From: Hormoscilla sp.
GTDB lineage: Bacteria; Cyanobacteriota; Cyanobacteriia; Cyanobacteriales; Desertifilaceae
Reading direction: 5' to 3'
Assembly: GCA_051439505.1 (NCBI GenBank)
Contig: JBFRWI010000058.1
Coordinates: 1-43,379 of the forward strand
Length of the DNA stretch: 43,379 nt
How positions within the stretch are numbered: position 1 is the first letter of the stretch; each line of letters opens with the position of its first letter. The translations under genes and the position numbers were made by a program. The notes below the pieces were generated by a model. The model was not told where the DNA came from, did not search any database, and saw only the letters and a program-made list of their open reading frames with translations. Shown piece by piece: positions 22,010 to 30,936 of the stretch.

Positions 22010-22086
22010 TCCTGAGGTGAAAGGGCGATCGCATTCTATAAAATAGTCAACAGGATGATATAGAAAGATTTAGCCTGTCAGAATTT

Positions 22087-22130
22087 TGTTATCTAGGCGA
22101 TCGCATCTGGGAGCGATCGCCTAGATAACA
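22087..22130. terminator. 18-bp perfect hairpin between convergent genes, with HIP1 in both arms
   Basis: tgttatctaggcgatcgc-atctggga-gcgatcgcctagataaca. The terminator role is inferred from position only. Confidence 0.5.
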
Positions 22131-22255
22131 TCCAAAAATATCTTAACAAACAACGACTTCGGAGCCGCAGCATCGAGTATCTCCTGTGTTTATTGTTAAA
22201 TGTAAGTTTAATTCTGATTGACCTTGACCCAGTATTTGCGAAAATCGGATTAAAT

Positions 22256-25200
22256 TCAAGCGATACTCTGTTCCCAGCAAACCTTTAATTTTTCTGCCAA
22301 CACTTGTATGTGAGGCTGACTCATCATGGTGTGGTGGTCACCAGGTACAATATGGATATCCACCGGACCATCCGCATATTCACTCCAACCCCAACTGGGT
22401 TCTAGTTTCAGGTCTTGGCGAAAACTCTCCATTTGTGCCACCGATCGACTCGTTAAAGGAATGTCACGGGCTTTAAATAGGCTGATGGGAGTCGCCGGAA
22501 TCTCCCGTGGAACATAATTCGTTTGGCAATTCGCTTTGAAAACTTTTACCAAAGCATCAAGCTGTTTGAGGGAAATGTGCCAACTATTTTGCGTCAAGAT
22601 TTCATGGAGATAGTTGAGTTGTGCTTGGGTTTCCAGTTGTTGTAATTCTGCGTAGGACAATTCCAGTTCGATATTTAACAAACGTCCGACAATATGAGCG
22701 ACCTCAGTTATCCATTGCGCTTCATTCCAATCTATGCCGATCGCGCCTTTAAAAGGCACGGTGCTGTCAAAAATAACCAGTCGTGCAACCTTCTGTCCCT
22801 GAAGTTGTAACTGTTTGGCCATTTCCAGGGCAACTCCAGCACCAAAGGAATGACCGCCAAGCAAGTAGGGGCCTTGAGGCTGTACCGTTTGGATTTCTTG
22901 GATATAGCGAGCGGCCATGTCTTCAACCCGCGTTTCTGGAGCGGTTTCGCCATCAAGTCCGATCGCTTGCAGGCCATAAAAAGGTCGGTCTTCACCCAGA
23001 TGACGGGCTAACTGATGGAAATAGAGTACATTGCCACCAGCACCGGGTAGGCAGAAGAAAGGCTCTTTGGAGCCGTTGGGTTGAATGGCAACGAGGGGCG
23101 ACCATTGGTTAACAGGGTTAATCGTATTTGAGGATGGCTCAATAAGTTTGGCTAATTCGGCGATCGTCCCACCTTGAAACAAGGCCGATAAGGGCAAGTT
23201 TTGACCGAATTGCTGTTCTATCTGCGCTAACAGGCTGACCGCTAATAGGGAATGTCCGCCCAAGTCAAAGAAATTATCATGGATGCCAACTCGCTCAATG
23301 CCCAATACGGAAGTCCAGATATCGGCTAACATTTCCTCATCTGCTGTCCGAGGTGCCACAAAGGTTTCTTCTGATAACTGATAATCATTGGCGGGTCTCT
23401 GAGATAAAGCCCGACGATCTATCTTGCCATTGGGTGTCAGGGGCAAGGCGGAAAGTAGCACGAAAGCGGACGGAATCATGTAGTCAGGAAGAGACTCTTT
23501 GAGGTAGTTACGCAGACGGTTATTCAACTGGCGTTGCAACATTTTCAAGATGCCGGTTGTTTCCAGCAAATGCTGTACGCTTTGGTTGACAATCGCCTGT
23601 TGTTCCCCTGTGAGATTAAAGGCAATCCCCACTTCCGATTCCTGCACCCATCTGACTTCCCCCTTTAACCAACGCATTTCTGAATCAATGGGTAACTGTA
23701 AGCCTAGATTGAGTTCCTGACCTTCAGTCAAGGTGAGGATTTGACCCCCGTCTACACCCAGACCGCCACTGCTAATATCTACCGTGCGGACTGTTAACGG
23801 GTTGCCGTCCATTTGGATAAGACAGTCGGTTTGATAGGGGATGCGATCGGGGATAAGATCGGATACCAGGTAAGCCACGAGGCGCTTTTCTCCGGGTTGC
23901 TCTTCTTGGACGATGACAACAGCTTCTTGGATATCGGGGTGTTGAGCTAACACGGCTTCGATTTCGCCAAGTTCGATCCGAAAACCGCGAATCTTGACTT
24001 GGTTATCGATGCGTCCCAAGTATTCAATATTGCCGTCGGGTAGATAGCGGGCTAAGTCGCCGGTTTTGTAGAGGCGAGAGTTGGGGTCGTCGCTAAACGG
24101 ATTGGAGATGAATTTTTCGGCTGTTAATTCCGGGCGATTCAGGTAGCCACGAGCTAAACCAGTACCGCCGATATGAAGTTCGCCGGGGACACCTACTGGT
24201 ACGGGTTGCAAATGAGAGTCTAAAATGTAGGTTTTTGTGTTGGCGACGGGGCGACCAATAGGAACAATAGACTCCTTGGCAGAACACTGCCAAAACGTGG
24301 CATCTATACAAGCTTCTGTTGGGCCATAAAGATTTATTAATTCAACGTTGAATGTATTAAGAATTATTTCTATCGATGTGAAAGGTAATGGTTCGCCCCC
24401 ACAAAAAATGCGTTTCAGCGATTGAAGGGTTTCAATTTCCTGAATTGACAAAAGAACTTGCAACAGAGATGGCACCATTTGCACTATGGTTACTTGATGT
24501 CGAGCAATAATCTCGATCAGAGAGCGGCTGTCTTTCTGCCAGTCAGGTGGAGCGATCGCCAGTTGTGCCCCAACAACAAGCGGCGCATAAAATTCCCACA
24601 CGGAGGCATCAAAACTTATGGGGGTTTTTTGTAAGACTTTATCTTGCTCGCTCAAGGGAAAAGTATCCTGCATCCATTGGGTATGATTGCAAATTGCTTG
24701 GTGGGAAATCATTACTCCCTTCGGCTTGCCGGTTGAACCTGACGTATAAATGACATAAGCCAAATTCCCAGGCATCACCCCACTGCTGAGATTTTCCGAA
24801 CTCAACCGGGACAGCATTTCTGCCTCAATATCTAAACAAACCACCTGGGCTTTAGTTTCTGGCAGTTTCTCTTTTTGGCTCGATTGAGTCAACAACACTG
24901 GCACTTGGGCATCCTCTAGCATAAACACCAAACGCTCTGCCGGATAAGTCGGGTCGAGGGGCAAGTATGCGCCCCCGGCTTTGAGAATGCCAAAAATCCC
25001 GACTACCATTTCAATTGAACGCTCGACACAAATTCCCACCAATACTTCCGGTTTGACCCCCAAGGTTTGCAGATAGCGAGCCAGTTGATTGGCTTTGGCG
25101 TTTAATTCTCCATAAGTCAGTTGTTGCTCTTCAAACACTACCGCCACTGCATCCGGTGTTTTTTCGACTTGCTCCTCAAATAGCTGGCTGATGGTGTACT

Positions 25201-28200
25201 TATCTTGGGGATAATCCACTTGGGTATCATTCCATTCCACTAATAATTGATGGCGTTCCCGTGACCTTAGCAGGGGCAATTCCGAAAGGCGTTGCTGCGG
25301 ATTGGCCACAATACCTTCTAGCAATGTCTGCAAATGACCGGATAAACGTTCTATAGTCTCCCGTTTAAATAAATCCGTGTTGTATTCCCAGCGACCCGCG
25401 AGCCCGGAAGCGGTTTCTGTCAATTCCAAGGTCAGATCGAATTTGGATATCTCGCTTTCCAATTCTAAAAGAGTTAAACTCAGCCCCGCCAATTCCAAAT
25501 CCGGCAGCGGTGCATTTTGCAGTATGAACATCACTTGAAACAGAGGGGAATGACTCAAATGACGTTTTGGCTGTAATGCTTCTACCAACCGTTCAAACGG
25601 AATATCTTGATGGGCATAAGCCTCTAATGCCACCCGTCGCGCCTGCTGTAAAATTTCCTCAAAAGGTGGGTTTTCTGCCAAGTCTAGGCGCAAGACCAGG
25701 GTATTCACAAAAAAGCCGATGAGAGACTCGATTTCACTACGATTGCGATTGGCAATGGGGGAGCCAACTGCAATATCCTGTTGCCCGCTGTAGCGAGACA
25801 ATAAAACGGCAAAAGCCGACCAGAGAATCATAAACAGCGTCGTGCCAGTTTCTTGACTGAGCTGTTTCAGTCGAGCCGTTAATTCATCGGAGAGGGAAAA
25901 GGATATGCTGGCTCCTGAAAAACTCTGGATTGGAGGGCGCGGATAATCCGTTGGCAATTCCAGCAATGCTGGCAGATCGGCCAATTGCTGTTGCCAATAC
26001 TTGAGTTGTTCCTCCAGCACTTCTCCCGCCAGCCATTGCCGCTGCCAGTTGGCAAAATCCACATATTGAATCGGTAGCGGTGGCAGGGACGCAGGTTGTC
26101 CTTGCAAAGCCGCTTCATAAAGGACGCGCCATTCCCGAACAAAAACACCGAACGACCAACCATCGGCAATGATATGGTGCAGCACGATTAGTACGATGTG
26201 GGAGGTCGCATCTAATTGGAGTAGGGCGGCGCGGAATAACGGCCCGGTTGCTAAGTCAAAGGGACGCATCGGCTCTTCTTTGAGCAACCGCCGCACTTCG
26301 GGTTCTCGTTCTGCCTGGGATAAGGTCTGTAAATCAAAAATCTCGAACTGGAAAGCTCGATGGGAAATCTGCACCACAGGAGCGCCATTGACAGTGGGAA
26401 ATGTAGAGCGCAAAGTTTCGTGACGATCGACCAAGGCTTGAAAACTTTGTTCTAGTGCTTGTTGGTTCAGTTGTCCGTCAAGCCGCACCGCTGCCGCTAG
26501 ATTGTAGGTGGCACTTTTTTCTTCTTTTTCTTCGAGTTTGTCGAAAAACCACAAACGCTGTTGGGCAAAAGACAGTTGCAAAGGTTTGTCCCGCTCTACT
26601 GGCGTTATTGGCGCTAAAGAAGACTCGCCAGAAGACTCGCTCAACTGGGTGCCTAATTGGGCGATCGTCGGCAATTCAAATAATAGGTGCAGGGGCAATC
26701 TGACCGCAAAGGCATCGCGAATCCGCGACATCACTTGAGTCCCGATGAGGGAATGACCGCCCAGTTTAAAGAAATTGTCATAGATGCCGACTCGTTCGAT
26801 ATTTAACACATCCGCCCAAATCCCCGCTAACAATTCTTCCGCTGGGGTGCGCGGGGCGACATAAGTTGCGGTAGATGCTTGGGACTGCCGGTTTTGAGAC
26901 TTAATCCGCTCTAAAATCTGTTCTGCATCAGATAATTCCGTGGCAATTCGCATCAACAGCATTGATTCCCCACTCTTGGCTTTTGCCTCTTCGCTTTTGC
27001 CTAAAAGTGAAGCTCCCCCACTCTTGGCTTTTGCCTCTTCGCTTTTGCCTAAAAGCCGACTATTATAGGTCAATTCCGATGCCAACTCAACGGACAAGCT
27101 GTATTGCCAACCTCCCTCCGTGGGTTGTTTGAATTGACTGCCCATACTCTCCAAGAAATCTAGCACCGCTTGATTTCTTTCAGTGGGCAGATAAGGAATC
27201 TCAATCGAGTTCAGTTGGCGTTCTGCGGCAATTTTCCCTAACCGAGCCAGCATTTGATGTTCGACACCTCGACCGAGGGCGCGGCAACTCAATAAAAAGG
27301 TATCGACGCGGATCGATCCGATGGCAGACCCCCCCTTAGCAAGGGGGGGCTTGGGGGGGTCGATCGCATTAGTCACTAACTCAAATAAAATAACGCCAAC
27401 CAAGCCATAATCCCCAAAACGGTCTCTCACTTCCACTACCAGAGATTCAAAAGCACCGGATTGGCAAAGTTGTTGAATTTCCGCTTCGGTTCTTCTAATA
27501 GTCGTGAAGTTAAACTGGTTAGTTCGTTTCGTCAATTGGGAAACTCGACTTAGCTGGGAGGTTTCCATCGGTGAAATCGCGACCTCCAGTTCCAGTCCTG
27601 CCAGAAAATCAGCTAACGTTGGGGCCTGCTCCTGGAAGCGATCGCGCTCTTGCTTTTGTTGATAATACTGAGTGCGCTGCCGGTCTTCTGCGGTGACATC
27701 TCCTAAATTATCAAAAGCCCAAACATGATTCAGAAACTGCTCCCACTGGTTTAAATCCGCAGGCAATTGGATGGTGGTGACTTCCGGACAGTTCGCTCTA
27801 ACTTCAGCGCATTCAATCGGATTATCGTCAATAAAGATAAAACTCGACAATCCTAAATTAAGTTCTGCCGCTAAAGACTTGAGATTTTCTGATTTTGGTT
27901 GCCAGTTAATGCGCCAAGCCACCAAATGTTCGCGCTTCAGAGACATATCGGAACGCCCCTCGAGTACAGCCAAAACATCCGCTTCATTATTTTTACTGCA
28001 CAAACATAATAATTTCCCCGCCTGCTGCTGCTGCTCACATAAAGTTTGTAGCGCTTGGTGAGGAGAATCTATTTTCAAGTTTTGCACTCCGTCTTCAGCG
28101 CAAACCCCTTGCCACAAGGTATTATCGCAATCCAGTACGATCGCTTTGTACGGATGGCGCTTGATGGCATGAATTTTGCGGGCAATCTGAGTACCCAGCG

Positions 28201-28504
28201 CCGCAAACAAAGCCGGTGTATAGGGAATCTGACCCAGTTCTTCTGCCCCTGGATCGTAAATTCTAGAAACGGGGTAATTTTTGAGTAGTTCCGAGGATGC
28301 GATCGGATGTAGAGACGCGAAATTTCGCGTCTCTACCATACCTGCCAATTGAGAGGCTAACAAATCTTCTGCCCAAGGTAGATTGCTAGGGCAAATACAG
28401 ACAATATATATCCGATCTTTAAGAACGGATGTTAAAGCGCGAAATTTCTGACATTTTCCTCGATTTCCGCCTGCATTATTGCCTTGTCTGTAGATTTTGT
28501 CCAA
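22256..28504 (-). CDS. NRPS, downstream part: FkbH (HAD-IIIC + GNAT-like)-T-C-A(PilZ-interrupted)-T-TE
   Basis: LDCDNTLW, FIDDNP, RTNQFN, DRFGDYG, LLSCRALGR; GGHSL x2; HHIIADGWS; YTSGSTGKPKG, YGPTE, YKTGDL, PNGKIDR; TE motifs GHSFG and GDHHTM. The N-terminus is probably a frameshift continuation of 28432-30486. Confidence 0.93.
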   Translation of the reverse strand: MDKIYRQGNNAGGNRGKCQKFRALTSVLKDRIYIVCICPSNLPWAEDLLASQLAGMVETRNFASLHPIASSELLKNYPVSRIYDPGAEELGQIPYTPALFAALGTQIARKIHAIKRHPYKAIVLDCDNTLWQGVCAEDGVQNLKIDSPHQALQTLCEQQQQAGKLLCLCSKNNEADVLAVLEGRSDMSLKREHLVAWRINWQPKSENLKSLAAELNLGLSSFIFIDDNPIECAEVRANCPEVTTIQLPADLNQWEQFLNHVWAFDNLGDVTAEDRQRTQYYQQKQERDRFQEQAPTLADFLAGLELEVAISPMETSQLSRVSQLTKRTNQFNFTTIRRTEAEIQQLCQSGAFESLVVEVRDRFGDYGLVGVILFELVTNAIDPPKPPLAKGGSAIGSIRVDTFLLSCRALGRGVEHQMLARLGKIAAERQLNSIEIPYLPTERNQAVLDFLESMGSQFKQPTEGGWQYSLSVELASELTYNSRLLGKSEEAKAKSGGASLLGKSEEAKAKSGESMLLMRIATELSDAEQILERIKSQNRQSQASTATYVAPRTPAEELLAGIWADVLNIERVGIYDNFFKLGGHSLIGTQVMSRIRDAFAVRLPLHLLFELPTIAQLGTQLSESSGESSLAPITPVERDKPLQLSFAQQRLWFFDKLEEKEEKSATYNLAAAVRLDGQLNQQALEQSFQALVDRHETLRSTFPTVNGAPVVQISHRAFQFEIFDLQTLSQAEREPEVRRLLKEEPMRPFDLATGPLFRAALLQLDATSHIVLIVLHHIIADGWSFGVFVREWRVLYEAALQGQPASLPPLPIQYVDFANWQRQWLAGEVLEEQLKYWQQQLADLPALLELPTDYPRPPIQSFSGASISFSLSDELTARLKQLSQETGTTLFMILWSAFAVLLSRYSGQQDIAVGSPIANRNRSEIESLIGFFVNTLVLRLDLAENPPFEEILQQARRVALEAYAHQDIPFERLVEALQPKRHLSHSPLFQVMFILQNAPLPDLELAGLSLTLLELESEISKFDLTLELTETASGLAGRWEYNTDLFKRETIERLSGHLQTLLEGIVANPQQRLSELPLLRSRERHQLLVEWNDTQVDYPQDKYTISQLFEEQVEKTPDAVAVVFEEQQLTYGELNAKANQLARYLQTLGVKPEVLVGICVERSIEMVVGIFGILKAGGAYLPLDPTYPAERLVFMLEDAQVPVLLTQSSQKEKLPETKAQVVCLDIEAEMLSRLSSENLSSGVMPGNLAYVIYTSGSTGKPKGVMISHQAICNHTQWMQDTFPLSEQDKVLQKTPISFDASVWEFYAPLVVGAQLAIAPPDWQKDSRSLIEIIARHQVTIVQMVPSLLQVLLSIQEIETLQSLKRIFCGGEPLPFTSIEIILNTFNVELINLYGPTEACIDATFWQCSAKESIVPIGRPVANTKTYILDSHLQPVPVGVPGELHIGGTGLARGYLNRPELTAEKFISNPFSDDPNSRLYKTGDLARYLPDGNIEYLGRIDNQVKIRGFRIELGEIEAVLAQHPDIQEAVVIVQEEQPGEKRLVAYLVSDLIPDRIPYQTDCLIQMDGNPLTVRTVDISSGGLGVDGGQILTLTEGQELNLGLQLPIDSEMRWLKGEVRWVQESEVGIAFNLTGEQQAIVNQSVQHLLETTGILKMLQRQLNNRLRNYLKESLPDYMIPSAFVLLSALPLTPNGKIDRRALSQRPANDYQLSEETFVAPRTADEEMLADIWTSVLGIERVGIHDNFFDLGGHSLLAVSLLAQIEQQFGQNLPLSALFQGGTIAELAKLIEPSSNTINPVNQWSPLVAIQPNGSKEPFFCLPGAGGNVLYFHQLARHLGEDRPFYGLQAIGLDGETAPETRVEDMAARYIQEIQTVQPQGPYLLGGHSFGAGVALEMAKQLQLQGQKVARLVIFDSTVPFKGAIGIDWNEAQWITEVAHIVGRLLNIELELSYAELQQLETQAQLNYLHEILTQNSWHISLKQLDALVKVFKANCQTNYVPREIPATPISLFKARDIPLTSRSVAQMESFRQDLKLEPSWGWSEYADGPVDIHIVPGDHHTMMSQPHIQVLAEKLKVCWEQSIA
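26968..27055. repeat. In-frame 40-nt direct duplication (48-nt period) in the NRPS linker
   Basis: ccccactcttggcttttgcctcttcgcttttgcctaaaag twice, encoding LLGKSEEAKAKSG x2. Confidence 0.9.
28309..28336. repeat. Perfect 28-bp GTAG-ended REP-like palindrome inside the NRPS
   Basis: gtagagacgcgaaatttcgcgtctctac, read in-frame as VETRNFASL. Confidence 0.88.
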
Positions 28505-30486
28505 TCCTGCAAGCGCACCAATATCACATTAATGCCCGTTTCATTTTTGGAAAGCAGACTGGAAGAATCGAGCAATTGCTGAAAAACCTGGTTGTAAGGC
28601 GCAAACTCAACCTCATAAGGCAGGTCGAGTTCTTGCATCCAAAAGTCAAGGGATTCTTGCAAGGGTTCCGCCGTGAAAGTAGCGCTAACAGCAATTCTTT
28701 CAACAAGTCTTTGTTCGTAATGCCTTGTTTTTTTAGGTTCGGACGCGACCCGGGATTTCTTTTCTTCCAGCAGTTCGACCAAACCCAGATGAGTATTGAG
28801 AAACGCGACCAATCGATGGTTAAAAAGCGGGGCAGGTTTGGCTTCGGAAACTACCACGGCTCCTTTGGCAATGAATTTTTCCATCATCAGCCAAAAATCT
28901 GTCACCTCGTAGCAAACATGGTACAAGCTGATGCCTCGATTTAATAAAGACTTTACTTGATTCCCGGCAACCAGTTCTATGTCAATGTTGTTGTTAGTCT
29001 TAATTAAGCAAACCTTGGCATCTTGGTATTTATCAAAAACAATTTCGCCGATATCGGTGACATCATAAATCTCTTTCACATATTCGATGCCAGCTTCAAT
29101 ATTCTCACAAGCGTAACCGTTATGATGGAATTTGAGTTGTTGCTTGAATTGGGCATCGGGGATAATTTGTAATTCCCGAACTGGCACCGAATGCGATCGC
29201 AGTATTTCTCCTAACAAAAATTGCAAGCCAAACTGCAAATGTTCGATGTCATCAGCCTCAAAAAAGCTCTGATTATAATCGAAATAGATATTGACATCAT
29301 CGTGATGATGAAATTCTTCAATGGTAATAAAAAGCCCATGTCCTTGCGGGTAAAAACCGTTAGCTAAATACACGGAGTGACTCGGATTGCCGTTAAAACT
29401 CACATCGTAGTCAAGCTTGGCATAAGATAGGGTGACATCAAACAATGGTTGTTGGTTGCCCTTCCCTCCAACTTCCCGGCTAATTTCGCTTAAAGGAAGA
29501 TGTTGATGTCGATACTCCTTGTGCAGTTCCTTGCTAATCTTTTCTAGCAATTCGGCAACGCTCAAGTCAGTGCCAAAACGAAACCAAGCGGGACTGACAG
29601 ACATGAACATACCAACGGTCTTCTTAAAAGCGACTGTATTTCGATTGAGTAGGGGTAAGCCAATGGTAAAATCCTCCCGATGACCTGTCCGTAAAAAATA
29701 ACAATAGAGTGCGCCTAAGATGACATGGAAAGGGGAAACTTTATGGTTAACAGCAAACTTGGCTATTTGGTTATAAAAAGACCGTTTGACGCGCAGGGTC
29801 GAGCGTTGACTGGGAATGGTTTGACCCTGAAATTGTTCGGCATAGCGGCGTAGTAAAAGCGGCTCGGGTAGTTCGCTGTATTTGTCGTGCCAGTATTGTC
29901 GATCTTTGGCAATTTTTGCCGAGTTGGGGTAGGTGCGATCTTTGTGAATAAAATCTTTGTAACTATAATATTGTGGTTCAGACTTTTGTTCGCTAACCAA
30001 TGCGTTATAGGCACTGGCAATCCGTTGGACAATCATAGAAAACCCCCATCCATCAACGATAAGATGATGGGCTTTGTGAAAATAGTAATAACAATTATCC
30101 GCTGCTTTGCATAATGCGATTTTAAACAATAACTCCTCATATAGTTGGAAAGGCTTGACAAACTCTTGTTCCATCCATTCGATCGCCGCTTCGCGAGCAT
30201 TTTCCTGGGTGGAAAAATCCTGGAATTCCAGAGTTATGCGAACATTTTCGGCAAAAGTTTGTGTGGGCAATCCTTCCCCCGCATGAATAATGATGCGGAG
30301 TGCATCGTTTTCGGCAATAACTCGATTGATGGCTTTTTCAAAAAGGGCAGGAGCGATTTCCCCCTCTATCCGCGCATAACCCCCGATATTGTACAGGGGC
30401 ACATCCGGGTGCAGGATTTGGTCGAACCACAAGTCTAATTGAGGAGAAGATAAGGGGTAATGATTGTTGGTTTGACTTAAATTCAT
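28432..30486 (-). CDS. NRPS, upstream part: condensation domain-VOC (glyoxalase/epimerase-like) domain-start of FkbH N-terminal domain
   Basis: LSSPQ, YNIGG, HHLIVDGW; FHHNGYAC, IELV, LYHVCYEV, LVELLE; IAVSATFTAEPL and FAPYNQVFQQL. Confidence 0.88.
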   Translation of the reverse strand: MNLSQTNNHYPLSSPQLDLWFDQILHPDVPLYNIGGYARIEGEIAPALFEKAINRVIAENDALRIIIHAGEGLPTQTFAENVRITLEFQDFSTQENAREAAIEWMEQEFVKPFQLYEELLFKIALCKAADNCYYYFHKAHHLIVDGWGFSMIVQRIASAYNALVSEQKSEPQYYSYKDFIHKDRTYPNSAKIAKDRQYWHDKYSELPEPLLLRRYAEQFQGQTIPSQRSTLRVKRSFYNQIAKFAVNHKVSPFHVILGALYCYFLRTGHREDFTIGLPLLNRNTVAFKKTVGMFMSVSPAWFRFGTDLSVAELLEKISKELHKEYRHQHLPLSEISREVGGKGNQQPLFDVTLSYAKLDYDVSFNGNPSHSVYLANGFYPQGHGLFITIEEFHHHDDVNIYFDYNQSFFEADDIEHLQFGLQFLLGEILRSHSVPVRELQIIPDAQFKQQLKFHHNGYACENIEAGIEYVKEIYDVTDIGEIVFDKYQDAKVCLIKTNNNIDIELVAGNQVKSLLNRGISLYHVCYEVTDFWLMMEKFIAKGAVVVSEAKPAPLFNHRLVAFLNTHLGLVELLEEKKSRVASEPKKTRHYEQRLVERIAVSATFTAEPLQESLDFWMQELDLPYEVEFAPYNQVFQQLLDSSSLLSKNETGINVILVRLQDWTKSTDKAIMQAEIEENVRNFAL

Positions 30487-30936
30487 TTTTCAATATGCTA
30501 TTTTCACAGTTTCTGATTACCGCTTTACTTTTCTTGAGAATTTGGTGGCGGGGAACCGTTAGGGTGCCTTCGGTGTAGAGACACCTTCTCCCCTGCCGTT
30601 TTCTAGTTCCAATATCGACTATCTTTCTTCATCTTGCCAATATTTCGCTCGATAAAAATCTGTCTTAGGGTATATTTTTGAATGGTTACTGGGTCATGGT
30701 ACCGGTCAGGAGGCATGGTAAGCAAGTGGACAAAAATATTTACACATTCGGCAGCGATTTCGGTGGGCGGTGCCCACCCCGGAACTCCTACCCGATCGAC
30801 CCGATCGCACCTCCGAATTGTACTGTGCCGATGGGCGCTCTCCTAATGCTAAAGTGATAATAGACATTTCTACCCTGACAATCGCCATCAAACTTCGCCC
30901 CTACTGACATTTGAGAAACAATAACTAACAACTAAA

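Follow-up and report, generated by a model that had tools for sequence, protein, structure and literature searches.

The window analysed here is the whole 43,379-nucleotide (nt) stretch of contig JBFRWI010000058.1 from the cyanobacterium Hormoscilla sp. (assembly GCA_051439505.1), and the element under study is a vicinal oxygen chelate (VOC) domain encoded in a nonribosomal peptide synthetase (NRPS) locus, just upstream of a glycerate-loading FkbH domain. The locus contains two open reading frames (ORFs) on the minus strand. ORF1 (30486..28432, 684 aa) encodes a condensation (C) domain, the VOC domain (ORF1 residues 451-575) and ~100 residues of the FkbH N-terminal region, where it ends at a TAA codon (28434-28432). 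ORF2 (28504..22256) is in a different frame and encodes the HAD core of FkbH, whose DCDNT motif starts at 28132, together with carrier (T), C, adenylation (A), T and thioesterase (TE) domains. The features are as follows.

29140..30465, minus strand: C1 condensation domain with an HHLIVDG site (PF00668, ORF1 residues 8-449, E 1.2e-72), which we take to be of starter type from its N-terminal motif and its first position in the line
29188..29190, minus strand: codon 433 (Ser) of ORF1, just 5′ of the VOC domain; a stop in sequencing runs X2 and X3 (contig comparison)
28762..29136, minus strand: VOC domain of the FkbH-linked group, 125 residues LKFHHNG...LVELLEE (PF13669, ORF1 residues 454-562)
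29124, 28977, 28920 and 28776, minus strand: putative VOC metal ligands H5, E54, H73 and E121, respectively (alignment)
28441..28731, minus strand: first ~100 residues of the FkbH N-terminal region, severed by the frameshift (collinear with the FkbH N-region of relatives P0145 and P0002)
28432..28447, minus strand: frameshift site and ORF1 stop, ~4 nt fewer than in relatives (tblastn frame change)
28309..28336, no strand: perfect 28-nt palindrome within ORF2; compared with a contig of run X5, 18 nt are inserted in frame
27128..28147, minus strand: FkbH HAD-IIIC core, DCDNT intact (TIGR01686, 294 bits against a cut-off of 146.65)
26645..26863, minus strand: carrier domain T1, presumed to hold the glyceryl group (GGHSL at 26761; PF00550, matched in two stretches of ORF2)
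25241..26578, minus strand: C2 condensation domain with a QxRLW-type motif, presumably LCL-like (PF00668, ORF2 residues 643-1088)
23861..25180, minus strand: adenylation domain with code DAWQFGLIDK, presumably for glutamine (Pfam and motif reading)
23591..23845, minus strand: PilZ domain inserted in the A subdomain (PF07238, E 9.2e-12)
23141..23329, minus strand: T2 carrier domain (PF00550, ORF2 residues 1726-1788)
22307..23062, minus strand: thioesterase, GHSFG at 22855 (PF00975)

An FkbH-type loading unit, with a HAD-motif FkbH (TIGR01686) followed by a carrier domain (GGHSL), is present in ORF2. C, FkbH and T do not share one reading frame in the window, where the frame is broken near 28440, but do so in relatives P0002, P0004 and P0007, which are single chains of 2608-2705 aa with the order unbroken. 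The intact line reads C-VOC-FkbH-T-C-A-T-TE, and no redox domain is detected in the window line with Pfam. The original prediction, made from the letters alone, described a VOC domain fused ahead of FkbH; this is the arrangement in the three relatives, whereas in the window the frameshift cuts FkbH, and that prediction overlooked both the frameshift and the stop in two sister samples. It correctly placed the VOC domain directly after the end of the C domain: when the window's own C2-A junction is used as reference, the join follows VRELQIIPDA, the first part of the C-A linker, at the point where a normal module enters its A domain. P0007 and P0020 share the PilZ insert of the A subdomain, and a further NRPS in the same genome (contig C108) has a copy with 42% identity; the insert may tie the assembly line to c-di-GMP.

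The assignment to the VOC superfamily, for which a Glyoxalase_4 search had been suggested, is borne out by a PF13669 match of 46 bits against a gathering cut-off of 27 (E 7.4e-12). The excised domain matches no NCBIfam family, including TIGR03081 (methylmalonyl-CoA epimerase, MMCE) and TIGR00068 (glyoxalase I), and eight relatives score 40-62 bits with TIGR03081 (cut-off 114.95) and at best 29.4 bits with TIGR00068 (cut-off 120). The closest solved relatives by sequence are Clostridium acetobutylicum 3HDP (E 1.7e-15) and 2QH0; a profile built from 74 relatives scores these at 110-111 bits and MMCEs at 48 or less. The predicted metal-ligand pattern is also present, as H5, E54, H73 and E121 align with the His/Glu/His/Glu set of human MMCE and of 3HDP/2QH0. 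Of 181 non-MMCE domains, 167 retain the full set of ligands, the remaining 14 comprising eight truncated domains, two degenerate second copies and four with substitutions. On these comparisons the window VOC domain is assigned to an FkbH-linked group separate from MMCE and from E. coli-type glyoxalase I.

A predicted model of the domain (pLDDT 97.7) has only VOC proteins among its top fold matches, including 3HDP (Z 19.2, rmsd 1.4) and MMCE 6WF6 (Z 15.4, rmsd 2.2 over 122 residues; MMCEs overall Z 14-15), and the match of this monomer model to E. coli glyoxalase I (1F9Z) is poor (Z 5.0, rmsd 12.1, TM 0.39). In the model the active site is built within one chain in the non-swapped MMCE-type fold, so a single fused copy can hold the whole site; the Clostridium glyoxalase I likewise has its active sites inside single subunits, according to a review (PMC5412262). 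Relative to metagenome locus L079 the dN/dS is 0.115 for the VOC domain, 0.135 for the FkbH core and 0.205 for C1, values for T1 and C2 being discarded as artefacts of L079's own split. The VOC domain was therefore under selection before the gene decayed.

A VOC-only query against 1.84 billion representatives matches 723 proteins, and the counts that follow are from the best 150, of which 91 are short and 59 exceed 200 aa. FkbH is in the same chain in 52 of the 59 long matches: 32 start VOC-FkbH, 15 have C-VOC-FkbH, four have C-VOC-VOC-FkbH and one has the VOC domain inside FkbH, such that a C domain is upstream in 19. A second search adds five proteins with VOC downstream of FkbH, and 27 of the 120 proteins listed hold a VOC domain. 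The other seven long matches are fragments and, by eye, fusions to MBOAT-like (P0203), GNAT-like (P0195) and methyltransferase-like (P0194) proteins; these fusions fit a role in glycan acylation.

The association with FkbH extends to separate genes. Across 401 genomes from the Brevibacillus phylum, a profile search finds 25 places: one NRPS, six stand-alone genes that fall short of the MMCE cut-off and 18 that exceed it. An fkbH gene lies within 2.4 kb of all six of the stand-alone VOC genes, and of both of those in a cyanobacterial-phylum sample, although FkbH occurs in only 15 of the 401 genomes; no fkbH lies beside any of the 18 true MMCE genes (flanks 4-14.5 kb, several cut by contig ends), five of which are MeaB fusions. 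All eight stand-alone genes lie in glycan or flagellar loci, which also hold MBOAT (3), FabH-like (3) or GNAT genes, and a carrier protein is Pfam-supported in three and recognised by eye in four more. The suggested co-occurrence of VOC with FkbH and carrier genes is thus seen both in fusions and at separate loci. The linkage runs in one direction only: a VOC gene is missing from 10 of 16 FkbH loci, and PF13669 is found in four of 120 FkbH megasynthetases listed.

An unrooted tree covers 121 of 199 domains: second copies that had degenerated were omitted, as were 11 fragments or near-duplicates, and the short proteins and MMCEs were thinned at random. One starred side is made up of the 10 Bacillota MMCEs, and the upstream-fused and downstream-fused VOC domains fall in different starred clades, suggesting that fusion occurred at least twice; the positions seen are upstream of, downstream of and inside FkbH. 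One protein, P0162 (Cellvibrio sp.), reads C-FkbH-T and then C-VOC-VOC-FkbH-T, i.e. glyceryl modules without and with a VOC pair. Single-domain queries of genome contigs recover only three Brevibacillus loci, and the metagenome search recovers a single locus, L079, which is likewise split, at a T7 run. Several proteins (e.g. P0123, P0132 and P0140) encode a one-gene line VOC-FkbH-T-C-A(-MT)-T-KS-T-TE, with optional methyltransferase (MT), a ketosynthase (KS) and no acyltransferase (AT) domain listed. With the FkbH-linked profile 3HDP/2QH0 score 111 bits, above all eight fkbH-adjacent stand-alone genes (70-100 bits); the C. acetobutylicum gene for 3HDP is predicted to lie beside fkbH.

We found no published description of FkbH paired with a VOC or glyoxalase domain or with epimerisation in a search of a collection with few subscription papers. 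The FkbH-linked VOC is a real and probably undescribed domain type.

The window copy itself is probably a pseudogene within a decaying NRPS locus. In tblastn alignments of P0001, P0002, P0004 and P0007 the frame changes from -3 to -2 at 28441, splitting C-VOC from the FkbH core, so that this copy is probably not working in line. Contigs of run X1 (28308-28547, depth 146) and run X2 (28307-28490, depth 183) bridge the site without differences, indicating that the break is present in the DNA of these samples and disfavouring an assembly error; both runs come from one study, possibly the window's own source, and rare variants are lost from contigs. At 29189 a base change that turns codon 433 into a stop accounts for the whole depth in X2 (196.5/196.5) and X3 (5.71/5.71) and for none in X1 (0/162.6). 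The closest protein, P0001 (96% in the VOC domain), is broken elsewhere, in C2.

The gene could in principle still be made whole at a low level by -1 ribosomal frameshifting ahead of the ORF1 stop, or work as two proteins, but we consider this improbable. An in-frame X XXY YYZ heptamer lies at 28447-28441, three codons ahead of the stop and leading into the ORF2 frame, with AGGA 9 nt 5′ and a small hairpin 10 nt 3′, and such heptamers number five in the 2744 codons of both ORFs. However, the hairpin is weak (z -1.24, 60-nt stretch), the N-F codons after the heptamer are common to unbroken relatives, the stop in X2 and X3 is 5′ of the VOC domain, and the break in P0001 is at a different place. 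The palindrome at 28309..28336 lies 110 nt past the frameshift and has a folding energy of -23.1 kcal/mol (z -6.0). Its depth in X1 is ~5x that of its flanks, pointing to multiple copies in the samples, and the assembly has only one perfect copy. The 11 bases at the frameshift (28448-28438) are identical to part of the palindrome, perhaps by chance.

Gene content and HIP1 density mark the host as a cyanobacterium. The distribution of the locus fits acquisition of the NRPS by lateral transfer. The VOC domain is single-copy in its genome and occurs in three of 401 genomes of the cyanobacterial phylum, this one included. It is absent from all four same-genus genomes, in which the flanking genes are present at 82-94% identity. 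In two of five relatives checked dapB is directly beside a 233-aa gene that is 9.7 kb from it in the window. HIP1 has three copies in the 8.2-kb NRPS compared with 1.0 per kb across the genome. The closest full-length relatives are 63-82% identical, domain by domain; the cluster of P0002 contains a Ca. Parabeggiatoa protein, the nearest named relative, and P0008-P0012 are, we presume from the style of their accessions, from Ca. Kentron. The site 3′ of dapB (window 22010-30930) varies in content within the genus, with the flanking genes ~17 and 27 kb apart in genomes G805 and G807, and a different NRPS of 2913 aa in same-genus genome G804 (locus L076) has FkbH split by an insert and lacks VOC.

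As the window copy has probably decayed, the value of the observation rests with the VOC family. Two reports describe FkbH as replacing an A domain and converting D-1,3-bisphosphoglycerate to a glyceryl thioester on T, with an upstream C domain able to esterify the glycerate (PMC8949500, PMC10099666). L-glycerate products exist although FkbH can draw only on a D precursor (PMC8949500, PMC7383572, PMC10099666), vioprolide containing L-glycerate (PMC7383572). The reading that we favour, by a modest measure and by analogy with related enzymes, is that the VOC domain epimerises the carrier-bound D-glyceryl thioester to the L form. In an intact line FkbH would load and dephosphorylate D-1,3-bisphosphoglycerate to give D-glyceryl-S-T1. 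The VOC metal would then chelate the thioester carbonyl and the 2-OH, one Glu would take the C2 proton, and the other would reprotonate the enediolate on the opposite face to give L-glyceryl-S-T1. This step would be modelled on MMCE, on reverse glyoxalase I chemistry and on the septacidin enzyme SepA, a VOC isomerase in which a metal and two Glu on opposite faces shift a proton (PMC9978623). C1 would acylate a glycerate hydroxyl in a vioprolide-like manner, C2 would add glutamine, and TE would free an acyl-glyceryl-glutamine. Stand-alone VOC proteins encoded beside fkbH and a carrier protein would similarly determine whether the glyceroyl groups of surface glycans are D or L.

The original prediction had proposed that the domain epimerises or otherwise modifies the carrier-bound glyceryl thioester. 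Fold, intact ligands, purifying selection (dN/dS 0.115) and the one-way FkbH linkage all support a tailoring domain acting on carrier-bound glycerate, and the specific chemistry would follow from analogy. The carrier-bound glyceryl thioester, a 2-hydroxy thioester, appears to be the sole substrate common to all VOC settings. That VOC is optional on FkbH lines fits a D/L switch. The further proposal, that the domain was acquired by replacing an A domain, has to be modified, as FkbH is itself the known substitute for A (PMC8949500). The join at the first part of the C-A linker, together with the 32 of 52 fused relatives that begin with VOC, fits by sequence a starter C domain grafted onto a ready-made VOC-FkbH-T loading unit.

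Other chemistries compatible with the fold have to be weighed against epimerisation. The VOC domain could form the enediolate and then eliminate the 3-OH or 3-phosphate to give a pyruvoyl-S-carrier, reducible to lactyl by partner reductases. Glyoxalase I can expel leaving groups from enediolates, the FkbH linkage data are equally consistent with this course, and short-chain dehydrogenase/reductase or hydroxyacyl dehydrogenase genes are present in three of the eight stand-alone loci (L041, L043 and L058). It is nonetheless unlikely, since the 19 fusions with an upstream C domain need an acceptor hydroxyl, an FkbM methyltransferase in the module of P0096 and P0287 presumes a retained hydroxyl, and no reductase is encoded in the stretch scanned of the other five loci. 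Without a redox partner an enediolate is left with reprotonation from the other face or loss of the 3-OH, and an upstream C domain that needs the hydroxyl favours reprotonation. Alternatively, the domain could be a keto/aldo isomerase working on oxidised three-carbon thioesters, of the hydroxypyruvoyl to tartronate-semialdehyde type, together with a dehydrogenase or aminotransferase and with epimerisation as a side reaction. Such a role would suit the Brevibacillus VOC-VOC NRPS, which adjoins an aminotransferase gene in an edeine-like order; the window line and most fusions have no redox or pyridoxal phosphate-dependent partner, and we rate this lowest among the readings considered.

The products of glyoxalase I are 2-hydroxyacyl thioesters, and the VOC domain might be a true glyoxalase I working on the carrier thiol, converting methylglyoxal- or glyceraldehyde-type phosphopantetheine adducts to 2-hydroxyacyl thioesters for editing or alternative loading. 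By both sequence and structure it is closest to a protein deposited as Ni-bound glyoxalase I, in which each of the two sites lies within one subunit (PMC5412262). However, neither the window VOC nor the eight relatives exceed the TIGR00068 cut-off, and detoxification or editing leaves unexplained the near-exclusive fkbH adjacency and the absence of VOC from most FkbH lines; this reading seems to us quite unlikely. We attach slightly less weight still to a non-catalytic or accessory domain that binds metal or carrier, or dimerises, and aids FkbH loading. Both tandem second copies that could be scored lack the ligands, implying that structural VOC roles exist, and four first copies carry ligand substitutions. 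In the family as a whole the four ligands are kept in most domains, as counted above, the domain is as constrained as the FkbH core, and most FkbH domains work without VOC.

Several observations weigh against epimerisation as such. The H/E/H/E set cannot separate an epimerase from other VOC chemistry, the role is extended to the whole group by analogy, and the closest relative with a solved structure was deposited under the name glyoxalase I. A Brevibacillus NRPS with C-VOC-VOC-C (L001, L065 and L066) lacks fkbH throughout the scanned stretches, and a plasmid-borne pair of acyl carrier protein (ACP) and VOC genes (L007) has none within 12.4 kb. The C domain following FkbH-T is LCL-like in 23 and unclassified in 20 of 43 modules with VOC, compared with 18 and four of 22 without; none of the 65 is DCL-like, giving no signal of stereochemical gatekeeping by what are crude motif classes. 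The vioprolide architecture FAAL-ACP-C-HAD-T names no VOC in the available text (PMC7383572, PMC10099666), so L-glycerate may arise without one. VioA, sought by name, was not found among the 120 FkbH proteins listed.

The Brevibacillus VOC pair may nevertheless touch on related chemistry. In Brevibacillus porteri (L001 3522-10040) an NRPS with C-A-T-C-VOC-VOC-C is flanked by a KamA-like radical SAM gene on one side and an aminotransferase gene on the other. This order matches edeP-N-L-K-J of the edeine cluster, and the second residue of edeine is isoserine, a three-carbon 2-hydroxy acid (PMC9867215, PMC8867987, PMC13314799). From gene order, not sequence identity, we infer that this is probably an edeine locus, and the VOC pair may build isoserine or set its hand. 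For surface glycans, some genes for the glyceroyl group of the Tannerella glycan are without assignment (PMC6120980), and our search of the literature on glyceroyl groups and O-antigens found, among the papers listed, no gene cluster with a D/L-resolved glyceroyl.

A broader interpretation, which we hold tentatively and with less assurance than the epimerisation of glycerate itself, is that the VOC group comprises unrecognised, widespread epimerases of carrier-bound 2-hydroxyacyl thioesters, serving as an optional D/L switch that recurs as an in-line domain of NRPS and polyketide synthase lines and stands alone in glycan acylation. On this view the 'glyoxalase I' of C. acetobutylicum and the probable edeine VOC pair would be misread or unread members. 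If true, a 125-residue domain would provide a genome-readable rule for the hand of glycerate and a compact component for engineering assembly lines, a solved structure would gain a different interpretation, and P0162 would offer a natural test of the switch.

Among known systems, NRPS epimerisation (E) and dual E/C domains also invert the alpha-carbon of a carrier-bound thioester in line. They have an unrelated fold, whereas the VOC domain has 125 residues, would be metal-dependent and would act on a hydroxy acid. The FkbH modules of vioprolide (VioA), corramycin, cystomanamide, dysinosin and suomilide share C-FkbH-T, with FkbH in place of A and a C domain that can esterify glycerate; no VOC is named for them in the available texts, and the window differs in having a VOC domain between C and FkbH, plus the frameshift. 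SepA, a sugar C3 epimerase, is likewise a natural-product VOC enzyme with H/E/H/E and two Glu as acid/base on opposite faces, but it is a stand-alone protein with modelled two-chain sites that acts on a free 4-keto-sugar nucleoside (PMC9978623). E. coli GloA is a domain-swapped dimer with sites between chains, unlike the predicted non-swapped window VOC. MMCE (TIGR03081; 1JC5, 6WF6, 3RMU, 6QH4) shares the non-swapped fold, H/E/H/E and thioester alpha-carbon chemistry; the window VOC group falls below its equivalog cut-off, on a separate starred branch and beside fkbH rather than MeaB, and its setting is not methylmalonyl-CoA metabolism, the window copy being inside an NRPS and relatives in glycan loci. 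The closest likeness is to the C. acetobutylicum 'glyoxalase I' (3HDP, 2QH0), the best match in sequence (111 bits, against 48 or less for MMCE) and in fold, with the same four ligands and sites in single subunits; it differs in being a stand-alone protein labelled glyoxalase I, whereas the window VOC is fused in an NRPS.

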